Assembly (NCBI RefSeq): GCF_031286615.1
Contig: NZ_JAITUA010000008.1
Strand: one strand, 5' to 3'
Source: Chryseobacterium sp.
Lineage (GTDB): Bacteria > Bacteroidota > Bacteroidia > Flavobacteriales > Weeksellaceae
Length of the DNA: 64,000 nt
Part shown: one piece after another, positions 74-14,155 of the stretch
How the letters are laid out: every line of letters begins with the position of its first letter
Position numbering within the stretch: position 1 is the stretch's first letter
Position numbers and translations under genes: made by a program
Notes under the pieces: generated by a model
The model's database searches: none
The model's input: only the letters and a program-made list of their open reading frames with translations
What the model was told of the DNA's origin: nothing

Positions 74-2029
74 GTGAATGCTGAAGCGAATATAAGAATC
101 TATTACAAAAGGCCGCATGAGCTGGCTTCCAGTGCAGAAAAAGAGGATGCTGCTCCATCTATTTTAAACAAAGATTTAAGTGCTTTAAATCTGAATGAAA
201 AATTTCCTTCAGTACAATCCATCATTGATGCAATGAAAGGTTTGATTGACGAGCCTGAGCTGGATGATGAGGTAGTAGAAGAAGAAATAACAGCGGACAC
301 GGATAAAGATTTTATCAAAGAATTAATTGAAGAACCAAAGACATTTCAGGTAGGAAGCCTTATCAAAAGAATATGGAGCGGTCTGAAAATTCCTATGCGC
401 CACCTTTCTCCCGGAGAGCAGCCTATCGGAGGAATTTCTGATATGACCAACAAAGGTGATTTTCACAGAATGCTCCTTTCCGAGTTTGCCAATGAAGATG
501 ACGTCTTTATGAATAGAGTCGCCAACAATGAAGCACTTTACATTCAAAGAGAAATTCCGCCTGAAGAAAATATTTTTGAAAGAATTATTCTGATTGATAC
601 TTCCCTCAGAAACTGGGGAACTCCAAAAGTGTTGGCTTTTGCCTCTGCAATTGCTGTTATCAAACACCCGAAAGCACATTCTGAATGTAAAGTTTTTGCC
701 TTAGGACAGGCAGGTGTGCCGATTGTCCTTAACAAAGTAGAGGAAGTGGTTGAAAATCTCAATCAGGTGAGTCCGGTTCTTGAAGTTTCCGAAGCATTGG
801 AAAGTTTTTTTAATCAGGCGCATACCGAAAAAGATATTGAAGTGTTCTTCATTACCCATCAGGAGAATATGGAGGATGAAAAAATTCAGCGGGTGGTTCA
901 TCAGAATAGAGACAGACTTAAGTTTCTGGTGACGACAACATCAGATGGTGAAATTAATTTTTATAAACATCATAAAGGAGCCAGAAAACATATTCAGAAA
1001 ATAAAACTTCCATTGCAGGAGCTGTGGGCCAATCCGCCGCAGCAAAAACAGTCTGTTCATAACTTTAATGGAAAGAAAACCGATCTTCCACAAAATTATC
1101 CGGTTTTATTTCCAACCCCTGTTAATAAGATTGGCAAGTTTTTATACGAAGGCGAGTTTTTCATTCTGAGTTCTAAAAAACAATTGTTGAAGACTTACCT
1201 TTCTGATAATTATTACGACAAACATTCCTATGATTACTATAAAACACATCATGGCTGTGAAGTTCTGTTTGATAATATTTCCATAAAACCAAAAGGACAG
1301 TTTGCCCTTGCAAAAAATAAGCAGCAGCACTTTATTCTGTGCCAGTATCAGTCTGATCAGAAATTAATATCAAAGCTTAACCTCAATACAAGAGAATATT
1401 CTGAACAGAATCTTACAGGAATGAATATTCCGGAGTCCTACAAACTGATTTATTTTGGGCGGAGCTTTTACCTTCATCACCCGGACAATTCTACCCATTA
1501 TAAAATAAACATGGAGGGAAATATCTCTGTAGAACCTATTACCGGAAAAGATAAAGAATTTGAAAAAAATAATATAAAAGCCGAAGCTGAAGTTGCCAAA
1601 CTAAAAGGAAGCGGATTAAAAATTATCAATAATTTCAATAAAATAGGAATCAATCAACATGAAAATCTGGTTATTTCCGGACATGAATTGTACAGCTCTT
1701 TAGAAAACACGCTGGATTTTTCCAAAAACAAATATGATATTAAAATTTTTGCTGAGCAGAACAAAAATAAATTTACATTTCCCGATGGAAGCGAAATTAT
1801 TACAGACTCACGGGGAATGCTGACTTTCCGAAGCAGTAACAAAAGTATCGAAGAATTTTTTATTCCTTCCACGGCTCATGGGTTTCTTTCTCTGGCGACC
1901 TATACAGAATTTGGCGGATCAGAATATTATCTTCCGGAACATGCCTTGCTGAAAGTAAGAACAATGGATGATATGTGTGAAAGGTTTTTAAAACCGTTTA
2001 TAAAACAGATTTTGGATTATGGAGCTTAG
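74..2029 (+). CDS. vWA-like domain protein with a beta-strand-rich C-terminal half (start may lie upstream of the window)
   Basis: 651-aa ORF. 'IILIDTSLRNWG' looks like a degenerate vWA MIDAS strand and is preceded by a ViaA-like 'LLSEFANEDD' segment. The frame is open from nt 2, so the GTG at 74 may not be the true start. The 3' end overlaps the next ORF by 11 nt. Confidence 0.55.
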   Translation: MNAEANIRIYYKRPHELASSAEKEDAAPSILNKDLSALNLNEKFPSVQSIIDAMKGLIDEPELDDEVVEEEITADTDKDFIKELIEEPKTFQVGSLIKRIWSGLKIPMRHLSPGEQPIGGISDMTNKGDFHRMLLSEFANEDDVFMNRVANNEALYIQREIPPEENIFERIILIDTSLRNWGTPKVLAFASAIAVIKHPKAHSECKVFALGQAGVPIVLNKVEEVVENLNQVSPVLEVSEALESFFNQAHTEKDIEVFFITHQENMEDEKIQRVVHQNRDRLKFLVTTTSDGEINFYKHHKGARKHIQKIKLPLQELWANPPQQKQSVHNFNGKKTDLPQNYPVLFPTPVNKIGKFLYEGEFFILSSKKQLLKTYLSDNYYDKHSYDYYKTHHGCEVLFDNISIKPKGQFALAKNKQQHFILCQYQSDQKLISKLNLNTREYSEQNLTGMNIPESYKLIYFGRSFYLHHPDNSTHYKINMEGNISVEPITGKDKEFEKNNIKAEAEVAKLKGSGLKIINNFNKIGINQHENLVISGHELYSSLENTLDFSKNKYDIKIFAEQNKNKFTFPDGSEIITDSRGMLTFRSSNKSIEEFFIPSTAHGFLSLATYTEFGGSEYYLPEHALLKVRTMDDMCERFLKPFIKQILDYGA

Positions 2030-3716
2030 AATAAAACCTTTCCCGAAAAATAACTATCCCAAAAAGGGGCTTTTGATCAGAGGCTCTTCACCTGTGGTAT
2101 GGCTTCAGGAAATGGAAACGCTTGGTATTAATTTAAGCAAGGTAAGAACTTATGCAATTCCGGCAAACAGTCCTAATGTGCTGTATGGTTGTTTCCTTGT
2201 GTTTGACGACCATGCTCCACAGGAAATAGGTAGAAATGCTTACTTTCAATGTGTAGACAACAGGCTTTTTATTCCTGAAAACACTACTTTTTATCCCAAA
2301 ATAAATCCTGAAGACTGGGCACAGCTTGATTCCCGTTTTCTGGTTATACATCCTGAATTCGGACTCGTAAAACTCTCTGAAGAAATCGACTGGATTGCAT
2401 TAATTCAGCAGCCTGATATTATAGACGAAAATATCAGAAAACCGCTGAACGGAGTTTCAATTCCTCAAAAAATTGAAAGCTATACCGTTGAAATAGATGA
2501 CGAAAAAGTAATGGAAGCATTACAGCCAAAACAAACGGAAGAAGAATGGATTAATAACCTGCCATTTGACCTTAAAAAAGTGATGGCCGGAAATAAAAAA
2601 GAAATAGAAAAGTACTTACAGTACATTGAAAAATACCCTGAAAGAGCCGTAGAATTGGGTGTTTCTCTAGATGTAATGGGAACTTCCAGAGGAGACGGCT
2701 TTGGCAAGTTTACCTGGCTGGAAGGATTATTTGGTGGAGGTACAAGAGGTAAAACCGAAAGCACCGGAACAAGAAACTTTCGCAGAATATTCTGGGCGGT
2801 AATTATTACAGCTATAGTCTTAAAGATTGCATTGCCTTCAGATAAAGATAACCCCGGACAGGAAGAAAATACAACCTCTTCCGGAAAAATTGAAAACAAT
2901 GCTGTACAAGCTCCTTCCGATATGATTGCTTTCCAGTCCGGGACCTCAGAAATTGATCTGAAAATAGACTCTATATATCACCAGGAGAGAAAAGAATTGT
3001 CCAAAGAACTGGTTCACGCCGAGATCATAGAATCCAAAACAAAAGAAGACAAAGAAAATTATAAAAAAGCTGGTGGAAGGGATGTAAGTGAAATAGGAAG
3101 AGACATTGGGAAGCTTGTGAATAAAGAAAAACAAAGCCGGGATTCTCTTAAAACCATTTATAATAAGAAGATCACAAAACATCTTGAACAAAAAACTGAA
3201 AGACTGAAACGTAAAATTTCAGATTCCCTGAAGCAGTATACCAATGGAAAACCTGTAAATGGGGAAGTCGTAAAATTCCTGTTGAAAAAGAGAAAAGCCT
3301 TGATGGCTGATTCCTTGGGAAAACTTTACGGAACACTGGATATTGTAGATCCATCTTCAGCTTCCATTGATAAATCCAAAGTGAAAGCTGTGGGAACGGA
3401 AGGAACTCCATTAGAGAAAAAAGCCCCGGTTTCAGATATTATGTATATGGTTATCCTGATGATTGCCGGCGTAGGGTTGTATTTGTTCTTATTTAAAAAC
3501 AAATCATTAAATCTTGGCGGCGATAACGTACCTGCTTGGGTGAAATTTATTTTAATAGCAATTCTTGTGGCGATGCTGGTGTACTTATTTTATCCGTTGG
3601 TAAAAATGTTTGGCTATAACTGGTTTGTATGGGTGCTGGTGATCTGTGTGATGCTGCTTCTTTACCGTTTGTTCAGAGAAGATAAAACCATTTTAAAATC
3701 CGATGATGATGAATAA
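2019..3716 (+). CDS. membrane-anchored Lys/Glu-rich protein of unknown function
   Basis: 565 aa. Charged central region and three hydrophobic helices near the C-terminus (VILMIAGVGLYLFLF, FILIAILVAMLVYLFY, FVWVLVICVMLLLY). Overlaps both neighbouring ORFs, consistent with translational coupling. Confidence 0.6.
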   Translation: MELRIKPFPKNNYPKKGLLIRGSSPVVWLQEMETLGINLSKVRTYAIPANSPNVLYGCFLVFDDHAPQEIGRNAYFQCVDNRLFIPENTTFYPKINPEDWAQLDSRFLVIHPEFGLVKLSEEIDWIALIQQPDIIDENIRKPLNGVSIPQKIESYTVEIDDEKVMEALQPKQTEEEWINNLPFDLKKVMAGNKKEIEKYLQYIEKYPERAVELGVSLDVMGTSRGDGFGKFTWLEGLFGGGTRGKTESTGTRNFRRIFWAVIITAIVLKIALPSDKDNPGQEENTTSSGKIENNAVQAPSDMIAFQSGTSEIDLKIDSIYHQERKELSKELVHAEIIESKTKEDKENYKKAGGRDVSEIGRDIGKLVNKEKQSRDSLKTIYNKKITKHLEQKTERLKRKISDSLKQYTNGKPVNGEVVKFLLKKRKALMADSLGKLYGTLDIVDPSSASIDKSKVKAVGTEGTPLEKKAPVSDIMYMVILMIAGVGLYLFLFKNKSLNLGGDNVPAWVKFILIAILVAMLVYLFYPLVKMFGYNWFVWVLVICVMLLLYRLFREDKTILKSDDDE

Positions 3717-4731
3717 ACAGAAATTTATAGACAAATTTATGGCGGCATTCGTACTGCTGGCCATATTTAAGGTCATCGGAATCGTTGCCCAGTTATTCCA
3801 TGAAAGCTTCTGGAGCGTGGTCGGGACATTAGGAATCTTCTTAATTGTAGCCTTTATTATCCTTCTTGTGATCACTTCCTTAAAAGATAAAGAACAAAAC
3901 AACAGAAACACAACAGGAAGAAAAGGCAGTGGAAGCAGTAATTTCTATCTGGAAAACTCACTTTTTGACAGAATCCGGAGCAAATACGAAGAACTCGCCG
4001 AAAAATATATTGCGGAAAACGATTATAAAAAAGCAGCAAGAGTCTATATGAATTTGCTGCAGGATAATTACAGAGGTGCAAAAACACTTGAAAATGGCGG
4101 GTTTTATAATGAAGCAGCTGTAGTATACCTAAAGAAACTGAACAATAAATCTGATGCAGCACTTTGCTATGAAAAGGCAAAGCAATACAAAAAGGCAATT
4201 GACCTTTATAAAGAAATGGAGCAGAAAGAAAAAGTAGGTGATCTCTATAAAGAAATCAATGATCTTAAAAATGCCCACCATTACTATCAAATAGTTGCAG
4301 ATGATTATACAATCAATAATCAGATGGTGAAAGCTTCTTTAGTATACCGCAAAAAAATGGAAAAAGCTGAAGAGGCACAAAAAGTACTGTTGAAAGGATG
4401 GGAAGAAGACAGAGATGCTTTCAATTGTTTGAACAACTATTTTGCCAATATTTTTGATGTTAAAAAACTTGAATCTGAAATACAGCATTTATATCAGAAA
4501 ACTCCGGCTCACAAAAAGATCACTTTTCTGGAGGCTCTGAAATATGAATTTAAAAAAGGTCCGAAATTACATGCCATTACAAGAAATATAGCCTACGAAA
4601 TCATTGCTGAAAAAGTGGCCACCCGCTCAGAAATTGTCAACGAACTGAAATACTTTAATCCCGATGATGAAGTGATTCTGAAAGACATTTCCAGATTTAA
4701 AACCGGAAGGAATAAGATGTTTAGAAATTAA
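3703..4731 (+). CDS. two-TM protein with TPR-like helical repeats
   Basis: 342 aa. N-terminal hydrophobic helices, then repeated Y..A...Y/K..A helix pairs (YKKAARVYMNLL, YNEAAVVYLK, YKKAIDLYKE, AHHYYQIV). Overlaps the previous ORF by 14 nt. Confidence 0.55.
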   Translation: MMMNKQKFIDKFMAAFVLLAIFKVIGIVAQLFHESFWSVVGTLGIFLIVAFIILLVITSLKDKEQNNRNTTGRKGSGSSNFYLENSLFDRIRSKYEELAEKYIAENDYKKAARVYMNLLQDNYRGAKTLENGGFYNEAAVVYLKKLNNKSDAALCYEKAKQYKKAIDLYKEMEQKEKVGDLYKEINDLKNAHHYYQIVADDYTINNQMVKASLVYRKKMEKAEEAQKVLLKGWEEDRDAFNCLNNYFANIFDVKKLESEIQHLYQKTPAHKKITFLEALKYEFKKGPKLHAITRNIAYEIIAEKVATRSEIVNELKYFNPDDEVILKDISRFKTGRNKMFRN

Positions 4732-4802
4732 AAGATTGAAGAATTTAAAAATTAAAGAAAAACTTCTCTTTGAAAAAGGAATATAAATTTTATGTATGAT
4801 TT

Positions 4803-4955
4803 TTAAGGCGCAAGAAAATTGAAAATTTTCAGCAAGGTAGCTTATTAATTATGGCATTATTAAGAACAATATTATTATTGGTATTAAATTTTATCGGAGA
4901 TAAAATCCTCGCGCCTTAAAGTAGATTTTTTTAATATTATTTAGCGCCTTTGCGT
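4803..4955 (+). repeat. ~150-170 nt structured intergenic repeat, copy A
   Basis: Shares 'cagcaagg.a.cttat.aatta ... ggtattaaattttatc..agataaaatcct.gcgccttaa ... ttagcgcctttgcgt' with 40633-40803. Outer dyad is TTAAGGCGC...GCGCCTTAA. Confidence 0.7.
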
Positions 4956-5008
4956 ATCCAAAACCTTCCAGAGATTGTGAATCTTATAAAATAATACCAA
5001 AAAAGATT

Positions 5009-5016
5009 TATCTTTG
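5009..5016 (+). promoter_or_regulatory. Bacteroidota-type -7 box (TATCTTTG)
   Basis: Exact TAnnTTTG match 13 nt upstream of the ATG at 5029. Confidence 0.4.
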
Positions 5017-5028
5017 CCCCAGAAAATT

Positions 5029-5157
5029 ATGACAATACAAAGAGCACATATCAATGCAGAACTATTCGAAAGTCCTTCTAATAAAGGATTATTCGGATAT
5101 GATGAGATGATATGGAATGAGGCGAAATGTGCTGACTTTGGAAATTATTTACTGTAA
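5029..5157 (+). CDS. 42-aa small ORF (may instead be a small RNA)
   Basis: ATG to TAA gives MTIQRAHINAELFESPSNKGLFGYDEMIWNEAKCADFGNYLL. It sits between a -7 box and an intrinsic terminator. I recognise no homology. Confidence 0.3.
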   Translation: MTIQRAHINAELFESPSNKGLFGYDEMIWNEAKCADFGNYLL

Positions 5158-5187
5158 ACTTGTAAAAAATTAATCAAAATACAACAG

Positions 5188-5223
5188 AAACGCCTCGGAA
5201 AACCGAGGCGTTTTTTGTTTTTT
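5188..5223 (+). terminator. intrinsic terminator
   Basis: Hairpin AAACGCCTCGG-aaaa-CCGAGGCGTTT followed by a T-tract. Confidence 0.75.
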
Positions 5224-5544
5224 AGGTCAGAAATTATTTAGAATGAAAAAAAATAACCATAAACATGAAAATTTTTTAATAAACAATGAAACTTTAATAC
5301 GATAAAATAGAGTGATAAGCAACCCGGTGAGAGACAGTCATTTAGGTAATTAAGATATCTGCAAAATATTGCGGACAGAAATTCTCTACTCTAAAAACAA
5401 GGTGTAATCAATTGATTATCAGTAATTTAATTTGGAAATTTATTTGCGGATTCCAAAAATTCATATTTACTTTGCAACCGAAAATTGAAAGCAACAGGTT
5501 TTCAGGATTCAATTAAAAATAATTTAGAAACAAACAAAAATAAA

Positions 5545-5670
5545 ATGAAACAGTTACACAACATATTCAATCAATATTCAAGACTATTCGGACATGAGCC
5601 GGCAGGAGTTCTGTGTATTCTTGATAGTGAAATTGTGGATAAAAGGTGCTTATATACGTGGGTCAGCTAA
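5545..5670 (+). CDS. 41-aa small ORF (or ncRNA) just upstream of the tRNA array
   Basis: ATG at 5545 lies inside track ORF 5485-5670. A TTACTTTG -7-like box is at 5467-5474 and a terminator follows at 5695-5725. I recognise no homology. Confidence 0.25.
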   Translation: MKQLHNIFNQYSRLFGHEPAGVLCILDSEIVDKRCLYTWVS

Positions 5671-5694
5671 TGATCTCTTACGTTTAAAAATATG

Positions 5695-5725
5695 AAGCGC
5701 CTCCCGAAAAGAGGCGCTTTTTTTT
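5695..5725 (+). terminator. intrinsic terminator
   Basis: Hairpin AAGCGCCTC-ccgaaaa-GAGGCGCTT followed by T6. It ends 3 nt before the first tRNA. Confidence 0.75.
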
Positions 5726-5727
5726 AT

Positions 5728-5800
5728 GGTTTCTTTAGCTTATTTGGTAAAGCGCCGGTCTGTGGAACCGGAGAACAGGGTTCGATCCCCGGAGATACCC
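5728..5800 (+). tRNA. tRNA-His(GTG)-like, imperfect
   Basis: Anticodon arm CCGGT-CTGTGGA-ACCGG with GTG at 5762-5764. D stem GCTT/AAGC and T loop TTCGATC. The acceptor GGTTTCT/AGATACC has a T-T mismatch, the T stem has an A-G mismatch, and there is no clean G-1:C73. No CCA is encoded. Confidence 0.6.
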
Positions 5801-5809
5801 AAAATATAG

Positions 5810-5883
5810 AATCCCATAGCTCAATTGGTTAGAGCATCGACCTGATACGTCGAAGGTTGAAGGTTCGATTCCTTCTGGGATTA
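5810..5883 (+). tRNA. tRNA-Ile(GAT)
   Basis: Cloverleaf AATCCCA|TA|GCTC-AATTGGTTA-GAGC|A|TCGAC-CTGATAC-GTCGA|AGGTT|GAAGG-TTCGATT-CCTTC|TGGGATT|A. All stems pair perfectly. Confidence 0.9.
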
Positions 5884-5888
5884 CAAAT

Positions 5889-5944
5889 GTGAATTGTGAA
5901 ATTAAAAATTGACAAGCGAAACGAATTGATTATTGACGATTCAC
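5889..5944 (+). repeat. GTGAAT...ATTGACAAGCG...ATTCAC hairpin repeat, copy 1
   Basis: Shares 'aaaaattgacaagcg....g.attga..ttgac.attcac' with 31701-31787. The terminal dyad is GTGAAT/ATTCAC. Confidence 0.55.
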
Positions 5945-5955
5945 AAAATTAAAAC

Positions 5956-6029
5956 AATCTCATAGCTCAAATGGTTAGAGCACCGGTCTTTTAAACCGGG
6001 GGTTGAAAGTTCAAATCTTTCTGGGATTA
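5956..6029 (+). tRNA. tRNA-Lys(TTT)
   Basis: AATCTCA|TA|GCTC-AAATGGTTA-GAGC|A|CCGGT-CTTTTAA-ACCGG|GGGTT|GAAAG-TTCAAAT-CTTTC|TGGGATT|A. Confidence 0.9.
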
Positions 6030-6036
6030 CAAAAAC

Positions 6037-6110
6037 GGTTCCGTAGCTCAACCGGATAGAGCATGGGTTTTCTAAACCCAGGGTTAGAGGTTCAAGTCCT
6101 CTCGGAATCA
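6037..6110 (+). tRNA. tRNA-Arg(TCT)
   Basis: GGTTCCG|TA|GCTC-AACCGGATA-GAGC|A|TGGGT-TTTCTAA-ACCCA|GGGTT|AGAGG-TTCAAGT-CCTCT|CGGAATC|A. Confidence 0.9.
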
Positions 6111-6116
6111 CAAAAA

Positions 6117-6173
6117 GGTTCATGGAAAATTTCCAATCCGGCTGTCTCCCGGAAAAGAAACAGAAGTGAACCC
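6117..6173 (+). other. T-arm-less tRNA-Asp(GTC)-like mini-element (degenerate tRNA?)
   Basis: 7-bp acceptor-like helix GGTTCAT/GTGAACC. Small hairpin GGAA-aat-TTCC. Anticodon-like arm TCCGG-CTGTCTC-CCGGA with GTC at 6144-6146. An unstructured 12 nt replaces the T arm. Confidence 0.3.
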
Positions 6174-6178
6174 CAAAG

Positions 6179-6250
6179 CTGGAAAGATAACGGTGGTTGT
6201 TTACCCGTCTTGGACGCGGGAGGTCGCAAGTTCGAATCTTGCTTTCCAGA
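6179..6250 (+). tRNA. tRNA-Pro(TGG)
   Basis: Acceptor CTGGAAA/TTTCCAG, with C1:G72 and A73 as is typical for bacterial tRNA-Pro. Anticodon arm CCCGT-CTTGGAC-GCGGG. T arm GCAAG-TTCGAAT-CTTGC. The D stem is weak (3 bp). Confidence 0.8.
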
Positions 6251-6256
6251 CAATTT

Positions 6257-6328
6257 GTTCCATTAGCATAGAGGTAAGTGCATTCGGCTTTCTACCGAAC
6301 GACAAGGGTTCGATCCCCTTATGGAATA
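6257..6328 (+). tRNA. tRNA-Glu(TTC), copy 1 (U37 atypical)
   Basis: GTTCCAT|TA|GCAT-AGAGGTAA-GTGC|A|TTCGG-CTTTCTA-CCGAA|CGAC|AAGGG-TTCGATC-CCCTT|ATGGAAT|A. Position 37 is T rather than a purine. Confidence 0.75.
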
Positions 6329-6333
6329 CAAAT

Positions 6334-6407
6334 GATTTCGTAGCTCAAGTGGTTAGAGTGTCGGTCTGATACACCGAAGGTTGAAGGTTCGAGTCCTTCC
6401 GGAATTA
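6334..6407 (+). tRNA. tRNA-Ile(GAT), copy 2
   Basis: GATTTCG|TA|GCTC-AAGTGGTTA-GAGT|G|TCGGT-CTGATAC-ACCGA|AGGTT|GAAGG-TTCGAGT-CCTTC|CGGAATT|A. Confidence 0.85.
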
Positions 6408-6411
6408 CAAT

Positions 6412-6483
6412 GATTTTGTAGCTCAATGGTAGAGCGCCGGTCTGTTAAACCGGAAGTTGAAAGTTCGAATCTTTCCGGAATCG
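6412..6483 (+). tRNA. tRNA-Asn(GTT)
   Basis: GATTTTG|TA|GCTC-AATGGTA-GAGC|G|CCGGT-CTGTTAA-ACCGG|AAGTT|GAAAG-TTCGAAT-CTTTC|CGGAATC|G. Confidence 0.88.
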
Positions 6484-6509
6484 CAGGTAACTAATTGTTA
6501 ATTGTTTCA

Positions 6510-6586
6510 GGAGAAAGTAAAAGTTTGTCGAGAGCAGAAGATCTTTACGCCAAACACGAAAATACAGACAGACTTTTCTTCTCTCC
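6510..6586 (+). repeat. tRNA-array hairpin element, copy 1
   Basis: Lower stem ggagaaagtaaaagTTTGTC / GACAGActtttcttctctcc. Conserved apical sequence GAGAGCAGAAGATCTTTAcgCCAAAC. Confidence 0.8.
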
Positions 6587-6630
6587 CGATTAATTAAAAG
6601 TTAAAGAATATCATTTATAAATTTTTAGGT

Positions 6631-6695
6631 AAAAATAAAGTTTGTTGAGCGCAGAAGATCTTTAATCAAACAATTTTAGACAGACTTTATTTTTT
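6631..6695 (+). repeat. tRNA-array hairpin element, copy 2
   Basis: Lower stem aaaaataaagTTTGT / ACAGACtttattttt. Apical sequence TGAGCGCAGAAGATCTTTAatCAAAC. Confidence 0.8.
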
Positions 6696-6701
6696 TAATC
6701 T

Positions 6702-6784
6702 GATGGTTCGCCGAAGTGGAAGAGTCGGGGGCGGTCTGCAAAACCGTTGTGTAAACTGAGTGGGTTTGAATCCCATAGCCATCT
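6702..6784 (+). tRNA. class-II-bodied tRNA with a Cys anticodon (GCA) and U73
   Basis: Acceptor GATGGTT/AGCCATC plus discriminator T. Tyr-like D arm CCGA-AGTGGAAGAG-TCGG. Anticodon arm GCGGT-CTGCAAA-ACCGT with GCA at 6738-6740. 12-nt extra region. T arm GTGGG-TTTGAAT-CCCAT. Confidence 0.6.
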
Positions 6785-6865
6785 CAATGTAAAAACTATA
6801 GGAGATATAAGAATCTTTTATCAATGATCTTTTATCATCTATAGCAAAGAATATCCTTTATTAAT

Positions 6866-6935
6866 AAAAGAAAAAGGCTGTCGAGCGCAGAAGATCTTTA
6901 ACCAAACATTCAATAAAGACAGACCTTTTCTTTTT
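6866..6935 (+). repeat. tRNA-array hairpin element, copy 3
   Basis: Lower stem aaaagaaaaaGGCTGTC / GACAGACCttttcttttt. Apical sequence GAGCGCAGAAGATCTTTAacCAAAC. Confidence 0.8.
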
Positions 6936-6988
6936 AAAAGGAAAAAATGAGGAATTACTTATTCATGACTAATTGCTCATAAAAATCC

Positions 6989-7072
6989 GGAAGTACGCCG
7001 AAGTTGGAGAGTCGGGGCAGACTGTAAATCTGTTGCTTCATTGCTGAGTAGGTTCGAATCCTACTACTTCCA
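6989..7072 (+). tRNA. tRNA-Tyr(GTA), class II
   Basis: GGAAGTA|CG|CCGA-AGTTGGAGAG-TCGG|G|GCAGA-CTGTAAA-TCTGT|long variable arm (TTCA-ttgc-TGAG)|GTAGG-TTCGAAT-CCTAC|TACTTCC|A. Confidence 0.88.
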
Positions 7073-7077
7073 CTCAA

Positions 7078-7148
7078 CCACTGATAATGTAATGGCAGCA
7101 TGCAGGAAATGTACTCTTGTTGTTTAGGTTCGATTCCTGGTCAGTGGG
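7078..7148 (+). tRNA. tRNA-like gene with ambiguous anticodon (TGT/Thr if the loop is 7 nt, but A33)
   Basis: CCACTGA|TA|ATGT-AATGGCA-GCAT|G|CAGGA-AATGTAC-TCTTG|TTGT|TTAGG-TTCGATT-CCTGG|TCAGTGG|G. Position 33 is A and several pairs are G-T. Confidence 0.45.
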
Positions 7149-7153
7149 TTAAC

Positions 7154-7225
7154 GCTCTATTCGTCTAACGGTGAGGACGCCTGCCTTTCGAGCAGAAAAC
7201 AAGGGTTCGATTCCCTTATAGAGTA
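7154..7225 (+). tRNA. tRNA-Glu(TTC), copy 2
   Basis: GCTCTAT|TC|GTCT-AACGGTGA-GGAC|G|CCTGC-CTTTCGA-GCAGA|AAAC|AAGGG-TTCGATT-CCCTT|ATAGAGT|A. The TTCGTCTA..GGAC D arm is typical of bacterial tRNA-Glu. Confidence 0.82.
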
Positions 7226-7325
7226 CTGGATGTGAATAGCTGGTCAATATTGAATTGATATAATACCATGAAAGTTCAGATTTTTTTTTAAAATTGGCCA
7301 GTTACCATTCACACAAAAAATAAAG

Positions 7326-7395
7326 AAAAGAGAAAAAGGACTGTCAGGAGCAGAAGATCTTTAGTCAATAAAAATAGACAGCCTTTTACTTTTTT
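7326..7395 (+). repeat. tRNA-array hairpin element, copy 4
   Basis: Lower stem aaaagagaaaaaGGACTGTC / GACAGCCttttactttt. Apical sequence AGGAGCAGAAGATCTTTAgtCAATA. Confidence 0.8.
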
Positions 7396-7417
7396 AAAAC
7401 AAAATACATTAGGAAAT

Positions 7418-7492
7418 GAGAAAGGTTTGTCAAGCGCAGAAGATCTTTACAAATACTAGCAGGCATAATTTATAAACAGACAGAGCTTTCTC
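7418..7492 (+). repeat. tRNA-array hairpin element, copy 5
   Basis: Lower stem gagaaaGGTTTGTC / GACAGAGCtttctc. Apical sequence AAGCGCAGAAGATCTTTAcaaatac, with a longer loop than the other copies. Confidence 0.8.
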
Positions 7493-7588
7493 AAACCTAG
7501 ACATCATCTGAGTAATAAGCAATGAATGATGAGTAATTAAACAGCATAAATTACTTATTACAAATTGCTCATTATTGAGAAAAACGCT

Positions 7589-7664
7589 GCGGGAATGGTG
7601 GAATGGCAGACACTCTTGATTTAGGATCAAGCTTTTGGGGGTTCGAGTCCCCCTTCCCGTACCA
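7589..7664 (+). tRNA. tRNA-Leu(TAG) with a short (5-nt) variable region and encoded CCA
   Basis: Acceptor GCGGGAA/TTCCCGT plus A73, followed by CCA at 7662-7664. Leu-like D arm GGTGGAATGGCAGAC. Anticodon arm CTTGA-TTTAGGA-TCAAG. Variable region is only CTTTT. T arm GGGGG-TTCGAGT-CCCCC. Confidence 0.7.
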
Positions 7665-7751
7665 AAATATTAGTAATAAATAATGAGCAATGAGTAATGA
7701 TGCTAACAGTAGATATTTCTCATTACCAATTACTTATTGCTTATAAAATCT

Positions 7752-7824
7752 GGAAGAGTGGTGTAGAAGGTCTGCACGTTAGTCTGAAAAACTAAAGGTA
7801 CAGGTTCAATTCCTGTCTGTTCCA
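7752..7824 (+). tRNA. tRNA-Phe(GAA)
   Basis: Acceptor GGAAGAG/CTGTTCC (one G-G mismatch) plus A73. D stem GTGT/GCAC with a 9-nt loop. Anticodon arm TTAGT-CTGAAAA-ACTAA. T arm ACAGG-TTCAATT-CCTGT. Confidence 0.75.
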
Positions 7825-7884
7825 CAAAATATGAATGATAAATGATTGCTGGGCATTTCATCATTTATCAATTATAATTAAAAC

Positions 7885-7956
7885 TGATTCATAGTGTAAT
7901 AGGCAGCACACAAGATTTTGATTCTTGGAGTTTAGGTTCGGGTCCTAATGAATTAA
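7885..7956 (+). tRNA. tRNA-Gln(TTG)
   Basis: TGATTCA|TA|GTGT-AATAGGCA-GCAC|A|CAAGA-TTTTGAT-TCTTG|GAGT|TTAGG-TTCGGGT-CCTAA|TGAATTA|A. The U1:A72 pair is typical of bacterial tRNA-Gln. Confidence 0.82.
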
Positions 7957-7962
7957 CAATTT

Positions 7963-8033
7963 ACTCTGATAGTGTAATGGAAGCATCTCAGTCTCCAAAA
8001 CTGATGGTACTGGTTCGAGTCCGGTTCAGAGTG
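7963..8033 (+). tRNA. tRNA-Trp(CCA)
   Basis: ACTCTGA|TA|GTGT-AATGGAA-GCAT|C|TCAGT-CTCCAAA-ACTGA|TGGT|ACTGG-TTCGAGT-CCGGT|TCAGAGT|G. A1:U72 with G73 is typical of bacterial tRNA-Trp. Confidence 0.88.
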
Positions 8034-8117
8034 CAAAAGATGAAACCAGTGATGGGTTATCATTTATCATTTATCAATTATCAACAATCATTTATCAATT
8101 TAAAATATGTAGAAAAA

Positions 8118-8603
8118 ATGGAAACGCAACAACAAACATGGCAGAATATGAATGGAAAATTTTTCCAAAACTCTATCACACAGCTGGTAGAAGAAGCCAT
8201 TATCCGCGAACAGGCAAACGGACACCGTCTGAAAGTATGTGTGGGATCAGACTCTCATGTATATGGAGATGCCATCAATTATGCTACGGCAGTAGTATTT
8301 ATTCGTGAGGGAAAAGGAGCGTTTACCTTTATTAGAAAAGAAAGAGAAATACAGAGTATCAGTATCAAAGAGCGAATGCTGAATGAGGTTAACAAATCCG
8401 TAGAAATTGCATACGCTATCTGCTCTGTGTTGGATACTTATGGTGTAGAAATGGAGGTACACGCAGACATTAATACCGACCCCGATTTTAAATCCAATGT
8501 CGCACTTAAAGATGCAATGGGATACATTCTGGGAATGGGATATGTGTTTAAAGCAAAACCTTTTGCCTTCGCAAGTTCCAATTGTGCTGATATGATGGTT
8601 TAA
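8118..8603 (+). CDS. YkuK/DUF458-type RNase H-like fold protein
   Basis: Start trimmed to the ATG at 8118, because the track ORF start at 7977 overlaps tRNA-Trp. 'KVCVGSDSH..YATAVVFIREGKGAF..KERMLNEV..EVHADIN..KP.AFASS.AD' matches my recollection of the YkuK family. Confidence 0.6.
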   Translation: METQQQTWQNMNGKFFQNSITQLVEEAIIREQANGHRLKVCVGSDSHVYGDAINYATAVVFIREGKGAFTFIRKEREIQSISIKERMLNEVNKSVEIAYAICSVLDTYGVEMEVHADINTDPDFKSNVALKDAMGYILGMGYVFKAKPFAFASSNCADMMV

Positions 8604-8619
8604 TCTTTTAATCAAAAAA

Positions 8620-9432
8620 ATGAAAACAGTTTTAATTATTAATGGAGAAAAATATTGGAAGGATTATTTTGCAGGATTTGATGTAGTTCAGAAGAAAGTT
8701 CAGACATCAGAGTTTATGATAAAAGATTCTTCATTGTATGTAGTTGATGCAGATGGAGTCTGCAAGCCGGATATTATTTTCTGGCGGCTGGGAGCAATTA
8801 ATCCCGACCCCAAATATAGAAATATCCTAGAGTTGATTGACTATTCAGGAGTAGTTTGTATTAATTCTGCTTCCACATTATTAATGGGATATGAAAGGCT
8901 TACGATGCTGAATATCCTTAAAAAACTAGGGTTACCGGTTATCAACTTTAATGTAGCGACAAATACTCAGTATTTGAAAAATATGGAAATGAAATTTCCT
9001 TTTGTAGTTAAAGTTGGAAATCACCATGGTGGATACGGTAAAAGTCTGGTTTCAACAGAAGAGCAATGGGAAGAACTGAAAGACTTATTGTTTATTCATA
9101 GGAATTACGTGACTATCGAAAAGTTTATTGATTATAAATATGATATTCGCTATCTGGCTATAAATGATAAAGTTTGGGCAATGAAAAGAAGAGGGAAATA
9201 TTGGAAAGCCAATTCTTTAACTCAAGAATACCAAATTATAAATCCGGAAGATGAATGGATTGAAAAAGTAAAACTTTTACAGCAATATATCAAGGCTGAT
9301 ATTGTAGCCATTGATGTTTTGGAAACAGAAAATGGAGAAAAAATAATTTTAGAATACAATGATATTCCTGGTCTTTCAGGGTTTCCTGAAGATGTAAGGC
9401 TGGAATTATCAATGACAGTGAAAAGTAAATAA
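8620..9432 (+). CDS. ATP-grasp enzyme (RimK-like)
   Basis: 'FPFVVKVGNHHGGYGKS', 'RYLAINDKVWAMKRRG..WKANS' and 'VAIDVLETENGEKIILEYNDIPGLSG' are ATP-grasp core motifs. Confidence 0.72.
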   Translation: MKTVLIINGEKYWKDYFAGFDVVQKKVQTSEFMIKDSSLYVVDADGVCKPDIIFWRLGAINPDPKYRNILELIDYSGVVCINSASTLLMGYERLTMLNILKKLGLPVINFNVATNTQYLKNMEMKFPFVVKVGNHHGGYGKSLVSTEEQWEELKDLLFIHRNYVTIEKFIDYKYDIRYLAINDKVWAMKRRGKYWKANSLTQEYQIINPEDEWIEKVKLLQQYIKADIVAIDVLETENGEKIILEYNDIPGLSGFPEDVRLELSMTVKSK

Positions 9433-9454
9433 AAGAACCTTAAAATCAAAGAAT

Positions 9455-10231
9455 ATGTATTTTTTAGTTCAGGCTAATGTGTATTTAGATCCGGATCACT
9501 ATAAAATTTTTGATGCGCTGGAAGAATTGAATATCGATTACGATGTAATTAATATTCCTCCAGCAGCTGAGAAAATAGATTTTAATATAGACAGAAAAGA
9601 TGTTTTTGTCTATGGATCAGTAACCATTGCAAGATTGGCAAAACAAAATACAGAATGGTTTCCTGGTTCTTTTTACGGAGGCAATCATCTCTATGAAGTA
9701 TATTCTAAATATTATGGTGAAAACCTTCTTAATTATAATGTTTCTGTTCATAAAATCTCTGAGCAGCTGACTTGGGAAAAAGGTGAACTTAAATTCATTA
9801 AACCCTACAGTGAAGCAAAGATTTTTACAGGAAAAGCTTTTACAGAAATAGAATGGAAAGATTTTGTGTTTGAGGCACTGGAAAATCAAACCAATAGAAT
9901 TACGAAAGATTCTTTGGTACAGGTTTCCAAGGCAAAACGAACGATGAAAGAAGCAAGACTTTGGATTGTGGGGGGACAGATCATCGATGGAGGTTATTAT
10001 AAATTCAATGATGATGCTCCTTTTGAAGAAAAAGTTTCACAGGAAGGATTGGATTTTGCCAATAAAATGATTCAGCTTTTTAATCTTGAAGAAGCTTTTG
10101 TAATGGATATTTGTTTAACAGATGAAGGTTGGAAAATAGTTGAAATAAATTGTATCAACAGTTCTGGATTTTATCCAAACACCAATGTAAAAAGTGTTAT
10201 AAAAGCATTGAGCATTTATTTTTCAAATTAA
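9455..10231 (+). CDS. divergent ATP-grasp protein (DUF4343/R2K-like)
   Basis: 'FIKPYSEAKIFTGKAF', 'ARLWIVGGQIIDGGYY' and 'AFVMDICLTDEGWKIVEINCINSSGFY' give an ATP-grasp C-terminal signature. Confidence 0.55.
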   Translation: MYFLVQANVYLDPDHYKIFDALEELNIDYDVINIPPAAEKIDFNIDRKDVFVYGSVTIARLAKQNTEWFPGSFYGGNHLYEVYSKYYGENLLNYNVSVHKISEQLTWEKGELKFIKPYSEAKIFTGKAFTEIEWKDFVFEALENQTNRITKDSLVQVSKAKRTMKEARLWIVGGQIIDGGYYKFNDDAPFEEKVSQEGLDFANKMIQLFNLEEAFVMDICLTDEGWKIVEINCINSSGFYPNTNVKSVIKALSIYFSN

Positions 10232-10243
10232 ATTAACAGAACA

Positions 10244-10615
10244 ATGGAAAAAACAAAAAGATTATTATTTCTGGATGATATAAGATATCCTGTTGAGGCG
10301 TATCACTATACCAAACAGGAGATTTTCCTCAGAAATGACTGGCATATTGTGCGGAATTACGAGCAGTTTGTCAACAGGATTTTGGAAAAAGGACTTCCGG
10401 AAATGATTTCTTTTGACCATGACCTTGCCGATGAGCATTATCTGAAGCCGGATTCTCAGGAATTTGTTGAGAAAACAGGATACGACTGCGCCAAATGGCT
10501 GGTAGAATATTGTATGGACAATTATCTGGATCTTCCAAAATTCTATAGTCACTCCATGAATCCGGTAGGAAAGGAAAATATTCTTTCCCTTTTAAAAAAC
10601 TTTAAAAAACTGTAA
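10244..10615 (+). CDS. cyclic-phosphate-processing receiver (cREC) domain protein
   Basis: 123 aa. 'LFLDDIRYP', 'WHIVRNYEQF', 'ISFDHDL', 'TGYDCAKWLV' and 'HSMNPVGKENI' are the family hallmarks as I recall them. Confidence 0.65.
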   Translation: MEKTKRLLFLDDIRYPVEAYHYTKQEIFLRNDWHIVRNYEQFVNRILEKGLPEMISFDHDLADEHYLKPDSQEFVEKTGYDCAKWLVEYCMDNYLDLPKFYSHSMNPVGKENILSLLKNFKKL

Positions 10616-11178
10616 TGGATATTTTTAGATATATTCAGGATATAAAAACACATCTGAAACTCACATTTGATGAGGTAGACGGATGGTTTGAAAAAGATAA
10701 AGAAACGTTGAATCATCAGCCTTCAAACGGAGGCTGGACGGTTCAGCAGATTTTAGAACACATTTATCTTACAAATTTTTACTTGCTGATCCTTATTGAA
10801 AAAGGCGCCAAAAAAGCAATGAAGAATTCTTTGAATCTTGACCTTGAATCTGAAATAAAAAACTACAGTTTTAATAAGAAAAACTTTGACAGGGTAGGTG
10901 AACATGGTGCTTTTGAATGGATAAGACCAGAACATATGGAACCGAAAGGAGAATTAGGTCCGGATAAAATCAGAAGTTTAATGAGCCAGCAGTATCTACT
11001 GTGTTTACATTATCTGGAAGTGATGAAAAATGGTGAAGGACTCTTGTATAAGACGACAATGACAGTGAATGAGCTGGGGAAAATCAATGTATACGAATAT
11101 ATTTATTTTCTGTCACTTCATGCTCAGAGACATGTTACCCAGATGAAGAAAAACGAATCAGAAACGATTAAAAACTAA
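10615..11178 (+). CDS. DinB-family four-helix-bundle metalloprotein
   Basis: 'GGWTVQQILEHIYLTNFY' and the C-terminal 'LHAQRHVTQM' His-containing helices. The start overlaps the previous stop (TAATG). Confidence 0.65.
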   Translation: MDIFRYIQDIKTHLKLTFDEVDGWFEKDKETLNHQPSNGGWTVQQILEHIYLTNFYLLILIEKGAKKAMKNSLNLDLESEIKNYSFNKKNFDRVGEHGAFEWIRPEHMEPKGELGPDKIRSLMSQQYLLCLHYLEVMKNGEGLLYKTTMTVNELGKINVYEYIYFLSLHAQRHVTQMKKNESETIKN

Positions 11179-11184
11179 GACAAA

Positions 11185-12201
11185 ATGATTTTTAAAACAT
11201 ATAACTCTATAGAAAATGCTTATCAGACCCGCGTGATCGAACAGATCAGGATGCAGGGTTTTGGGGATGAGGTTTTCATAGTACAGGAAAAAGTTCACGG
11301 AGCTAATTTCTCTTTCTTTACCGACGGAAAGGAAATTAAAATCGCGAAGAGAACTGCTTTCATCGAAAAAGATGAAAAATTTTTCAATGCACATCAGATC
11401 TTGGAACGCTACAGAAAAAATGTATTAGAAGTGTTTCAGAAAGTGAAAACCATCCATCCGGATGTAGAAACTGTAGTGATCTACGGCGAATTGTTCGGTG
11501 GCGGTTACAAACATAAAGAAGTAGAACCTGTAAAAGATGCAGTGAAGGTACAGAAAGGCATTGAGTATGCCCCTCACAACGAATTTTACGCTTTCGATAT
11601 CAAATTGAATGGGATTACCTATTTGGATACAGAAGTTGTCAATCAGATTTTTGAGGAGACAGGATTTTTCTATGCTAAAATCTTGTTCCAGGGAACTCTA
11701 GAAGATGCTTTGAAATTCCCCAATGTTTTCAATTCAAAAATTCCGGCCTGGCTGGGATTGCCTGAAATGGAGAACAATATGTGTGAAGGTACCATCGTAA
11801 AAACTTTGAAAACCAAATATTTTGGAAACGGTGCAAGAATTATTCTTAAAAATAAGAATGAAAAATGGGTCGAAAAATCCAAAATGGTTAAAAAAGAGGC
11901 TAAAATTGTTCAGAAACAGGTTCATTTCAGTGAAAAAGCTCAGGAAATCTGGGAGGAAATCCAAAAATATGCTACTGTCAACAGGCTGAATAATGTTATC
12001 AGCAAAATTGGTGAATTCGAACCTAAAATGATAGGCAGGGTGATTGGCCTTTTTGCTCAGGATATTTTAGAAGACTTCGAGAAAGACTTCCCGGCAGCTT
12101 TTACAGCAATTGAAAAAGAAGAGCAGAAAAGGATCAACAAAAAGTTGAATTCTTTAGTAATTGATTTTATAAAAGAAGAGTTGATGACTCTTAAAGTATA
12201 G
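11185..12201 (+). CDS. RNA ligase, Rnl2 (T4 RnlB-like) family
   Basis: 338 aa, similar in size to T4 Rnl2. Motif I 'EKVHGANFSF' (Lys36), 'IYGELFGG', motif IV-like 'CEGTIVK', motif V 'IILKNKNEKW'. Confidence 0.8.
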   Translation: MIFKTYNSIENAYQTRVIEQIRMQGFGDEVFIVQEKVHGANFSFFTDGKEIKIAKRTAFIEKDEKFFNAHQILERYRKNVLEVFQKVKTIHPDVETVVIYGELFGGGYKHKEVEPVKDAVKVQKGIEYAPHNEFYAFDIKLNGITYLDTEVVNQIFEETGFFYAKILFQGTLEDALKFPNVFNSKIPAWLGLPEMENNMCEGTIVKTLKTKYFGNGARIILKNKNEKWVEKSKMVKKEAKIVQKQVHFSEKAQEIWEEIQKYATVNRLNNVISKIGEFEPKMIGRVIGLFAQDILEDFEKDFPAAFTAIEKEEQKRINKKLNSLVIDFIKEELMTLKV

Positions 12202-12229
12202 TTTCGGTATTTTTTACCGAAACTTTTTT
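12201..12229 (+). terminator. intrinsic terminator after the RNA ligase gene
   Basis: Hairpin GTTTCGGTA-ttttt-TACCGAAAC followed by T6. Confidence 0.7.
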
Positions 12230-12366
12230 GTATATAAACCTAACCATAAATGCTGCGTGAGTTTAAGGACCTGATTTTCATTATGCAGTAAGTTTGTCAT
12301 TCCGTAGGAATCTCAACCGTTAAAAGTGAAAATAGGCTTTCTTTTATGGTTTAAAAAAGAAAAAAT

Positions 12367-13311
12367 ATGTTACAGGCAGAAATAAAAAGTCTTTTAAAAG
12401 AAGACATTAGTATATTAATTAAAATTCCTAATTCAGGAAAGCACTATTTGTGTGATTGTGGAGAAGGAAGTTTATTAACTGTGAAAGAAGTACAGTCTAT
12501 ATCAGCTATATTCATAAGCCATACCCATATTGATCACTTTTCAAATTTCGATGGGATTTTCAGACATCAGATCGGAAGCGGAGAAAAAGTGATGATTTGT
12601 GGACCAAAAAATATTCATCAACAGGTTGAAGCAAGGTTAAAATCTTACACATGGAATCTGATTGATGAAAAAGCAATTGAATATGAAATTCGTGAAATTG
12701 TTTCACAAAATGAAATTAATATTTATACCCTTCGTCCGCCACATTGGAATCTGGAGTTGGTAAAGACTCAGAACTTCCTGTTTGAAGACGAATATGTCAA
12801 CGTTGATTTTGCTATTCTGGATCATAAAACAGATTCTATCGCTTATTTATTTAAAGAAAAAGATTCCGTCACCTTTAATGAAAATGCTTCCGGTTTTAAA
12901 AAAGGAAAGTGGATCAGCGAGCTGAAAACCGCTTTTGAAAATAATGATGGTGATAAAGAAATCAAAATTGAAGAAACTGTTTACAAAGCAGCTGATCTGT
13001 TTCACCTATTGACCCGTAATGCGGGCTATAAACTTGGCGTAATCATGGATCATGCGGCAGATGAAAACAATTACGAAAAAATCAGAACCGTATTTGAAGG
13101 TGCAGATATCGTGTATATCGAAAGCTTTTATAAAGATACAGATCAGGAATTTGCAAAGATCAATTACCACAGTTTTGCTTCTGCATCAGGAAAAATTATG
13201 AATGAATGTCAGGTGAAAGAAGCCATTCCAATTCACTTTTCAAGAAGATATACGGAAAGCGATCAGGAAGAAATTGAAACTGCTTTTTATAAAGCGTTTC
13301 GTAAGAATTAA
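12367..13311 (+). CDS. MBL-fold metallo-hydrolase (RNase Z/BN-like)
   Basis: 'FISHTHIDHFSNFDG' (HxHxDH) together with later D/H motifs. Confidence 0.7.
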   Translation: MLQAEIKSLLKEDISILIKIPNSGKHYLCDCGEGSLLTVKEVQSISAIFISHTHIDHFSNFDGIFRHQIGSGEKVMICGPKNIHQQVEARLKSYTWNLIDEKAIEYEIREIVSQNEINIYTLRPPHWNLELVKTQNFLFEDEYVNVDFAILDHKTDSIAYLFKEKDSVTFNENASGFKKGKWISELKTAFENNDGDKEIKIEETVYKAADLFHLLTRNAGYKLGVIMDHAADENNYEKIRTVFEGADIVYIESFYKDTDQEFAKINYHSFASASGKIMNECQVKEAIPIHFSRRYTESDQEEIETAFYKAFRKN

Positions 13312-13367
13312 TTAAAAATATTTATTAAACAAAACTATAGCATTCACAGAATAGTAATGTATGTACT

Positions 13368-13442: not shown

Positions 13443-13476
13443 AGAGAATGTTGTAGTTAAAAAACAATTTAAAAAA

Positions 13477-14040: not shown

Positions 14041-14155
14041 TGATGAGTAATAAGTAATGATTTGATGGAAGGAAAAATGGGAACGATATTTCAATGAGTA
14101 TTCAACAGCTTTCATCATACATTTTACTTTTTTACATCGTACATTTTATAATAAC

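Follow-up and report, generated by a model that had tools for sequence, protein, structure and literature searches.

RNAs other than tRNAs are known from tRNA transcripts. The tRNA cluster of phage T4 yields two small stable RNAs, species 1 and 2 (RNA C and RNA D), which are co-transcribed and processed with the tRNAs and whose function is unknown, and rtT RNA derives from a spacer of the tyrT operon. In Escherichia coli, a tRNA-operon spacer also gives rise to the sponge RNA 3'ETS-leuZ (PMC8383071). Long tRNA arrays have been documented in Bacteroidetes and, in cyanobacteria, have been linked to survival of translational stress (PMC8421152). Arrays that stand beside RNA-repair genes are thought to back up translation under tRNA attack or translational stress, and the expression and maturation of such arrays are poorly understood. 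Here we describe a hairpin element, H, that recurs five times between the tRNA genes of one such array in Chryseobacterium sp. (NCBI RefSeq assembly GCF_031286615.1, contig NZ_JAITUA010000008.1), within a 64,000-nt stretch of DNA that we call the window. An earlier note on this DNA, made from its letters alone, had proposed that H is under selection, structured and linked to the array. Our analysis agrees: H is a real, selected, structured element tied to the tRNA array.

Five hairpins in a genus-wide tRNA array

The array consists of 16 tRNA genes, found with ARAGORN and Rfam and presumed to share one transcript, in the order His-Ile-Lys-Arg-Pro-Glu-Ile-Asn-(H1, H2)-Cys-(H3)-Tyr-Thr-Glu-(H4, H5)-Leu-Phe-Gln-Trp. 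The 14-mer GCAGAAGATCTTTA occurs exactly five times in the window, always on the plus strand, at 6534, 6651, 6887, 7350 and 7436. Allowing up to two mismatches gives eight matches against 0.88 expected, a number that none of 100 shuffles reached. Each of the five copies is predicted to fold into a long hairpin, with z-scores of -2.35 to -3.24, and a covariance model (R1; 78 positions and 14 pairs, built from 37 copies) scores them at 67-82 bits on the plus strand and at 20-25 bits on the minus strand. These exact matches, folds and scores among the 16 tRNA genes bear out the five-copy conserved hairpin that the earlier note saw interleaved with the tRNAs, and its coordinates and description were accurate to a few bases. 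The same model found no other convincing copy of H in the window. A weak match at 48054-48101, on both strands (21.8 and 18.9 bits, E 0.014-0.07), spans about 48 nt, into which the family's 36-nt loop cannot fit, and we judged it a generic A/T-rich hairpin.

From 5' to 3', H runs through a purine-rich arm, (U)UUGUC, a linker of four bases (RAGM), the core, a variable stretch rich in A and usually containing CAAAC, then GACAG(R) and a pyrimidine-rich arm. Within the block first described as common to all five copies, TGTC does not apply to copy 2, which has TGTT in its place, nor CAAAC to copy 4, which lacks it; the rest of the block stands. The T-run ascribed to the end of the 3' arm is found in copies 2-4 only. 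By folding, the outer pairing of H1 reaches about 6488-6603, beyond the boundaries first given for it. H2 ends 7 nt before tRNA-Cys when its end is taken from the match of a hidden Markov model (HMM), and 2-3 nt before it, as in the commonest class, when taken from the full model. H5 carries a class-specific insert, CAGGCATAATTTAT, and its orthologous class comprises 63 distinct sequences.

The element extends well beyond this genome. Scanning one genome per species with the pattern TGTYNNNNGCAGAAGATCTTTA returned at least 119 stretches; among the matches listed, these came overwhelmingly from Chryseobacterium, with one from Epilithonimonas, and often numbered two to four per 8-kb locus, and those listed from other phyla were single, lacked the purine-rich stem signature and in some cases were clearly protein-coding. 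Across 100 sources, R1 had at least 300 matches. The HMM, built from the model alignment, recovered 357 copies in 98 Chryseobacterium and Epilithonimonas loci, many with diverged cores that the exact pattern overlooks: two copies in 11 loci, three in 40, four in 20 and five in 27. Building a model from the copies and scanning more widely, as the earlier note had recommended, thus disclosed a genus-wide family.

All 357 copies lie inside the homologous tRNA array, between same-strand tRNA genes and in the tRNA sense, and are presumably transcribed with them; three seeming exceptions were artefacts of how the array had been delimited. The arrays of the 98 loci total about 185 kb, and no copy was found in about 650 kb of flanking DNA. 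The note had raised the prospect of a generic repeat scattered through the genome without a link to tRNAs. Neither the remainder of the window nor the flanks contain any such dispersed copy, of the repetitive extragenic palindrome (REP), bacterial interspersed mosaic element (BIME) or miniature inverted-repeat transposable element (MITE) kind, whole genomes not having been scanned with the model. Gene order is common to the 98 arrays, and within it the slots of H are fixed. H1 follows tRNA-Asn by about 26 nt and precedes H2 by about 45 nt, with H2 2-7 nt before tRNA-Cys; H3 follows tRNA-Cys by about 26 nt (about 80 nt in the window's clade) and precedes the Tyr-Thr-Glu block by about 50 nt; H4 follows that block by about 100 nt, with H5 about 18 nt further on and about 95 nt before tRNA-Leu. 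The slot 3' of tRNA-Asn is kept in 65 arrays. In the main classes H lies 2-28 nt from the nearest tRNA end, and it abuts its neighbours tightly, about 24-28 nt after tRNA-Asn and tRNA-Cys and 2-3 nt before tRNA-Cys.

The earlier note could place H in no RNA family, and neither can we. At gathering thresholds, Rfam 15 reports only tRNAs and a Flavo-1 RNA motif in the whole window and nothing on H, and a permissive scan of 6450-7560 (E up to 10) adds only tRNA-type and chance microRNA-type matches. The Flavo-1 motif (RF01705; 25250-25337, minus strand, 59.9 bits) is intergenic and unrelated to the hairpins. None of the 16 tRNAs called by ARAGORN overlaps an H, and no tRNA model matches one even at E up to 10. 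In viral contigs the plain 14-mer has single chance matches only, none with the stem signature, and a longer pattern has two matches, both rejected by the model; BLAST searches of phage and plasmid collections return matches to tRNAs alone. H is a family of RNA motifs absent from the catalogues and restricted to a single lineage of tRNA arrays, and it adds to the list of conserved bacterial RNA structures.

Table 1. Positions in the window of the H hairpins, the array that holds them and neighbouring features (CM, score with covariance model R1)
Feature	Position	Strand	Remarks
H1 hairpin	6509-6586	+	about 25 nt 3' of tRNA-Asn; loop motif 6530-6545; CM 82.2 bits
H2 hairpin	6626-6698	+	loop motif 6647-6662; CM 72.7 bits
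H3 hairpin	6862-6937	+	between tRNA-Cys and tRNA-Tyr; loop motif 6883-6898; CM 78.1 bits
H4 hairpin	7325-7396	+	about 100 nt 3' of tRNA-Glu; loop motif 7346-7361; CM 67.8 bits
H5 hairpin	7411-7498	+	18 nt 3' of H4; loop motif 7432-7447; CM 67.3 bits
tRNA array	5728-8034	+	16 genes; ARAGORN and Rfam
tRNA-Cys(GCA)	6702-6785		within the array
tRNA-Tyr(GTA)	6989-7073		within the array
Other hairpin spacers	5885-5955, 6112-6178, 7227-7320, 7493-7588, 7665-7751, 7826-7884, 8035-8110		folding
Small open reading frames	5029-5157, 5545-5670		just upstream of the array
Canonical terminators	5186-5215, 5694-5720		one after each small open reading frame
Upstream flank	74-4731		MoxR-vWA-beta-propeller (bpX1/bpX3) conflict system
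Downstream flank	8118-16442		RNA repair and processing operon

Helix and loop

The helix around the loop, measured in 329 copies, has a median length of 21 bp and is at least 16 bp long in 97%, which is the length of an RNase III hairpin (near-continuous duplex of about 20 bp, or some two turns). G-C pairs make up 30% of the helix, and the loop has a median of 36 nt, ranging from 14 to 51. In 268 of 335 distinct copies (80%) it is the plus strand, that of the tRNAs, that gives the better fold, with a mean of -18.1 versus -15.3 kcal/mol (Wilcoxon p ~1e-30), and 11.8% of the predicted pairs are G·U, which would become A·C mismatches on the opposite strand. Together with the strand difference in covariance-model scores, these asymmetries point to a structure at the level of RNA, or of a single strand, in the tRNA sense.

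The lower stems differ between copies while keeping their pairing, which had been taken as compensatory change. The pairings are real, and the support that they lend as covariation is modest. In the model alignment, 89.1% of paired cells hold a pair, versus 87.8% after shuffling; seven of the 14 model pairs change on both sides, alternations of U·G with U·A and of G·U with A·U are present, and disruptions are few. When the 3' partner is shifted by one column, pairing falls to 57-63%, so the helix has a specific register. Within orthologous classes, most pairs either do not vary or switch between U·G and U·A or between G·U and A·U, and clear compensatory pairs are few, among them one in the H5 class (GC 33, AU 18, GU 8) and one in the H3 class (CG 30, UA 6). 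Swapping full arms among the window's copies gave -17.8 kcal/mol for cognate and -14.5 kcal/mol for non-cognate combinations, with the diagonal best in four of five rows. For the variable lower arms only, the values were -5.19 and -4.18 kcal/mol (p = 2e-7, a small effect), and a median of 32% of foreign 3' lower arms paired at least as well as the cognate one. A purine-rich arm pairs with nearly any pyrimidine-rich arm, and the apparent compensation is therefore largely low complexity that carries little information. With covariation this weak, the structure rests mainly on conserved pairing potential and strand asymmetry.

The loop presents a near-invariant motif, RAGMGYAGAAGWUCUU, in which the positions A, G, G, A, G, A, A, G, U, C, U and U are each 97-100% conserved among 334 distinct copies, and CAAA(C/A) comes a few bases 3' of it. 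The motif is near-invariant across species whose flanking proteins are only 55-90% identical and is unaltered between species in which neighbouring proteins share only about 55-75% identity; its constancy despite this divergence implies purifying selection. That the loop is conserved well beyond any terminator's need, as the earlier note remarked, is upheld across these copies; that the palindrome AAGATCTT is its invariant core is not, as the centre is A in 61% of copies, T in 37% and C in a few. The palindrome itself is thus not what selection maintains.

The centre of the motif varies together with the bases that follow UCUU. A central A goes with UA and a central U with AU or AC (about 175 versus about 100 copies, about 25 mixed); these are positions 7 and 12-13, for example 6541 and 6546-6547 in the window, and the A/U switches occur within orthologous slots. 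This could reflect a one-pair closure of a UCUU tetraloop, or merely lineage history. A short RAG/CUU helix may cap the stem and fits the data, its two sides being invariant and position -4, which faces an invariant U, being A or G and never U. Two alternative pairings seen by eye, GUUUG with CAAAC and loop AGAAG with CUUUU of the 3' arm, were dropped, since they are not conserved where the stem starts CUGUC. Sarcin-ricin loops, anticodon loops, integron attC core sites and K-turns, likewise compared by eye, did not fit. A search of the window and the 98 loci turned up no conserved RNA complementary to the loop motif.

The array and the island around it

The array contains an unusual tRNA-Cys(GCA). 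It is 84 nt long, has a long variable arm and is a paralogue of the array's tRNA-Tyr(GTA), with which it has the D-arm CGCCGAAGT.G.AGAGTCGGGG in common. It bears a GCA anticodon and, by eye, a U after the acceptor stem, which we take to be Cys identity marks on a Tyr-type class II body. This Tyr-type tRNA-Cys is kept in most Chryseobacterium arrays.

All other long spacers of the array also fold as hairpins, with z-scores of -2.6 to -5.2. They belong to other repeat families, at least three in number: GTGAATTGT...ATTCACA; a 67-nt element before tRNA-Pro, GGTTCA..CCGGCTGTCTCCCGG..TGAACC, kept in at least 68 loci; the ATGAGCAATAAGTAAT type; and the ATCATTTATCA type. Among the spacer families, the conserved loop is found in H alone. 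That every long spacer is a hairpin points to a general demand for structured spacers in this array.

The whole island is syntenic across the genus. It begins with the MoxR-vWA-bpX genes, a membrane protein and two small open reading frames (ORFs), each with a terminator, ahead of the tRNA array. Behind the array come a YkuK-type RNase H-like gene (8118-8603 in the window), two ATP-grasp genes, cREC, DinB and an Rnl2-type RNA ligase, and then a gene of the metallo-beta-lactamase fold (Lactamase_B_2; 12367-13311 in the window), a metallophosphatase and two RNase T-like genes; a GyrB-like gene is also present. Lactamase_B_2 is presumably the superfamily of RNase Z. YkuK is a predicted RNase H-like endonuclease (PMC3985635), and cREC domains are predicted cyclic-phosphate-processing enzymes tied to RNA ligases (PMC7824862). 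These downstream RNA-processing and repair enzymes are candidate partners of H. Homologues of cREC, at about 50% identity, also occur inside large phage tRNA arrays (IMG/VR contigs), at four of five loci together with a tmRNA gene, so the linkage of cREC to tRNA arrays recurs in phages; these phage loci contain no H element.

Six islands from other Flavobacteriales, Psychroserpens and several metagenomic contigs among them, were reached by way of proteins homologous to the YkuK-like one. In each, a tRNA array stands immediately upstream and a ligase, RtcB or Rnl2, is encoded close by; the tRNAs are mostly 4-10 nt apart. A model search of the six islands found neither H nor an analogous repeat. 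Given the compact, H-less spacers of these relatives, H and the long structured spacers are a derived feature of the Chryseobacterium/Epilithonimonas array.

The two small ORFs just upstream of the array are conserved and have 41-42 codons; 76 of 76 and 49 of 63 of their respective homologues are intact. A canonical GC-rich terminator follows each, the second abutting tRNA-His. All 17 amino acids served by the genus' arrays are present in 50 of 60 and 41 of 60 distinct variants of the two peptides, compared with 0.7% of random 41-residue windows drawn from the proteins of the window. A sub-threshold match to the Rfam family Phe_leader falls at 5116-5218, and the layout of a small ORF plus terminator also precedes the arrays of other Flavobacteriales. 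This looks like a candidate case of multi-amino-acid leader-peptide attenuation, sensing the tRNAs that the array backs up. With such attenuation the operon would be controlled from a point upstream of the array, in keeping with H not being a terminator.

What H may do, and what it resembles

Of the roles put forward in the earlier note, processing signal, protein site and small RNA are still in contention. We favor, tentatively and with a probability of roughly 40%, a reading of H as a cis-encoded structured spacer module of a polycistronic pre-tRNA, with its loop as a putative recognition site for a protein. One transcript of the tRNA array would contain all H hairpins. In it, the helix of about 21 bp, rich in A-U and G·U pairs, would bring the 3' trailer of the upstream tRNA near the 5' leader of the next feature and would display the loop of about 36 nt, with RAGMGYAGAAGWUCUU single-stranded and CAAAC after it. 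The helix may serve as an insulating and processing stalk, having the length of an RNase III-type substrate, and might protect the spacer from exonucleases and Rho. The loop motif would dock a specific trans-acting protein that acts at several points of the precursor, and cleavage of the neighbouring tRNAs by RNase P and RNase Z would free the hairpins as discrete RNAs of about 80-115 nt. In support of this reading, the array has no internal promoter or terminator signals: the canonical terminators lie upstream of it, as does the sole Bacteroidetes -7 box, TAnnTTTG, in 4700-8700 (at 5009). Matches to sigma-70-type promoters in the region are at background level, and H itself, compared by eye on both strands, does not fit a TTG...TAnnTTTG promoter.

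Several points weigh against the spacer-module reading. Covariation is weak, and homologous islands with YkuK, array and ligase do without H, so the element is dispensable for such arrays in general. A 16-nt invariant loop exceeds the needs of a plain processing stalk, and the protein that would bind it is hypothetical; co-transcription of the array and release of the hairpins are assumed. The invariant loop is a ready bait for a protein or RNA acting on the array transcript. With H and the upstream leader peptides, the control and maturation of a spare-tRNA operon can be put to a direct test in a bacterium that grows in culture.

Transcriptional roles for H can be weighed against this. The loop might be a boxA-like loading site for NusB/NusE that keeps RNA polymerase termination-resistant throughout the untranslated 2.3 kb of the array and on into the genes beyond it, in the manner of rRNA operons. 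Like boxA, H presents a short, unpaired, U/C-rich motif (G-N-UCUU-UA) that recurs along an untranslated operon for stable RNA, and the loop of H3, GAUCUUUAACCAAAC, resembles GCUCUUUAACAA, the boxA of E. coli rrn operons. In H2 and H3, GAUCUUUAA(C)CAA also resembles the published E. coli consensus GYTCTTTAANA (PMC5725501). From 120 Chryseobacterium-type rRNA operons recovered from metagenomes, the boxA of the genus' own rrn operons reads AAGATCATTGACAT, with one site in the leader ahead of 16S (112 of 116 loci) and a second in the 16S-23S spacer (64 of 69 loci); it has an A/T choice at position 2, as the H loop does, and AAG(A/T)TC..TT in common with H. In two arrays from other Flavobacteriales, AAGTTC[AT]TTGACATATTGG stands after the leader terminator and ahead of the first tRNA, making Nus-type antitermination of such arrays plausible, and the Chryseobacterium arrays have neither space for a leader boxA nor an rrn-type boxA elsewhere. 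A GATCTCTT box just before the leader terminator, considered as a conserved boxA, is present in only 33 of 79 loci. However, the likeness of H to boxA is no better than chance. Against a weight matrix from 110 rrn boxA sites, the median score of H is -5.8 bits, which is matched by 21% of random windows of 75 nt; against GYTCTTTAANA, a gamma-proteobacterial consensus, it matches 7-8 of 10 positions, where random windows reach 7 in 50% and 8 in 9% of cases. H also differs at rrn-invariant positions, with U fixed at a position at which A is fixed in the genus' rrn boxA; its most conserved part, RAGMGYAGAAG, falls outside boxA; and its first copy comes about 780 nt into the array, in a hairpin loop and not in the leader. 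We think an antitermination site quite improbable. The opposite role, that of intrinsic terminators or attenuators dividing the array into separately expressed blocks, was entertained in the earlier note and has next to nothing left to recommend it. The T-runs of copies 2-4, the U-rich 3' arms opposite A-rich 5' arms and the division of the array into four tRNA blocks would suit it, yet a scan for intrinsic terminators flagged none of the five copies while detecting both canonical GC-rich ones just upstream. Such a terminator calls for a short stem rich in G+C, a loop of 3-8 nt and a U-tract right behind it, but a T5 run stands at the helix end in only 10% of the 329 copies, the helix is poor in G-C and its loop wide, H2 ends so few bases before tRNA-Cys that there is no space for a restart promoter, and no Bacteroidetes -7 box lies inside the array.

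Rather than serving the transcript that carries it, H might act after release. Induced together with the spare tRNAs and present in several copies, it would be a stable small RNA serving as a sponge, decoy or scaffold, for example by sequestering a ribotoxin or regulator or by organising repair enzymes as Y RNA does for Rsr. This is a possible but unlikely reading. A transcript has as many as five copies of the same unpaired, invariant motif, the ends of the hairpins fall at tRNA processing sites, the island is one of RNA-damage response (Rnl2-like ligase, cREC, metallophosphatase, exonucleases), and there is precedent in spacer-derived regulators of tRNA operons (3'ETS-leuZ, PMC8383071). Weighing on the other side, the island holds no conserved complementary target, Rfam matches neither Y RNA (YrlA) nor another small RNA, no Ro/TROVE protein is found among 14 flanking ORFs scanned against Pfam, accumulation as a stable species is hypothetical, and sister islands with the same enzymes have no H. 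It is tempting to go further and imagine, although we consider it unlikely, a dedicated RNA of a tRNA-damage-response island, co-induced with spare tRNAs and repair enzymes under leader-peptide control, whose loop would act in trans, either as decoy or sensor of a toxin of the anticodon-nuclease type or as a nuclease/ligase scaffold; if true, H RNA would represent a new class of non-coding RNA associated with defence or repair. Finally, H might owe its presence to DNA, as a MITE- or REP-like palindromic repeat, or a DNA-binding or recombination site, that colonised the long spacers of this lineage's array. The restriction to one lineage and absence from the relatives' compact arrays, the further hairpin repeat families in the same spacers and the palindromic AAGATCTT of this genome all speak for such an origin. 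We hold it to be very doubtful, given the strong strand asymmetry and G·U pairs, the fixed orthologous slots across the genus, the lack of copies outside the array in the window and the 650 kb of flanks, the absence of any transposase or integrase among the 14 ORFs, and the lack of matches in phage or plasmid collections. The palindrome's centre varies, and the TGTC-GACA spacing follows the length of the loop, which makes it a misfit for a DNA operator.

The spacer-module reading invites comparison with known RNAs and repeats. REP, BIME and MITE sequences are, like H, repeated imperfect palindromes in intergenic DNA; H differs in belonging to a single locus, with fixed orthologous slots, strand specificity and conservation of the loop rather than the arms. 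Judged by sequence, H belongs to none of the RNase III stalks, the phage T4 RNAs or the spacer RNAs of tRNA operons. With RNase III hairpins, such as rRNA stalks and the sites in the early region of phage T7, it has in common a duplex of about 20 bp between the units of a long transcript, whereas its apical loop of 36 nt with an invariant motif contrasts with their small loop or internal bubble, and cleavage of H is hypothetical. RNA C and RNA D of phage T4 are structured non-tRNA RNAs embedded in a tRNA cluster; they have no sequence relation to H, which is chromosomal, genus-wide and repeated, and does not occur in phage collections. To our knowledge, Bacteroidota have no Hfq. Compared with 3'ETS-leuZ and rtT, H is a long hairpin with an invariant loop and 2-5 copies per transcript, for which we found no pairing partner and no Rfam match, rtT included. 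What H has in common with these two is its place, as a non-tRNA part of a polycistronic tRNA transcript that is bounded by tRNA processing sites and may persist as a discrete RNA.

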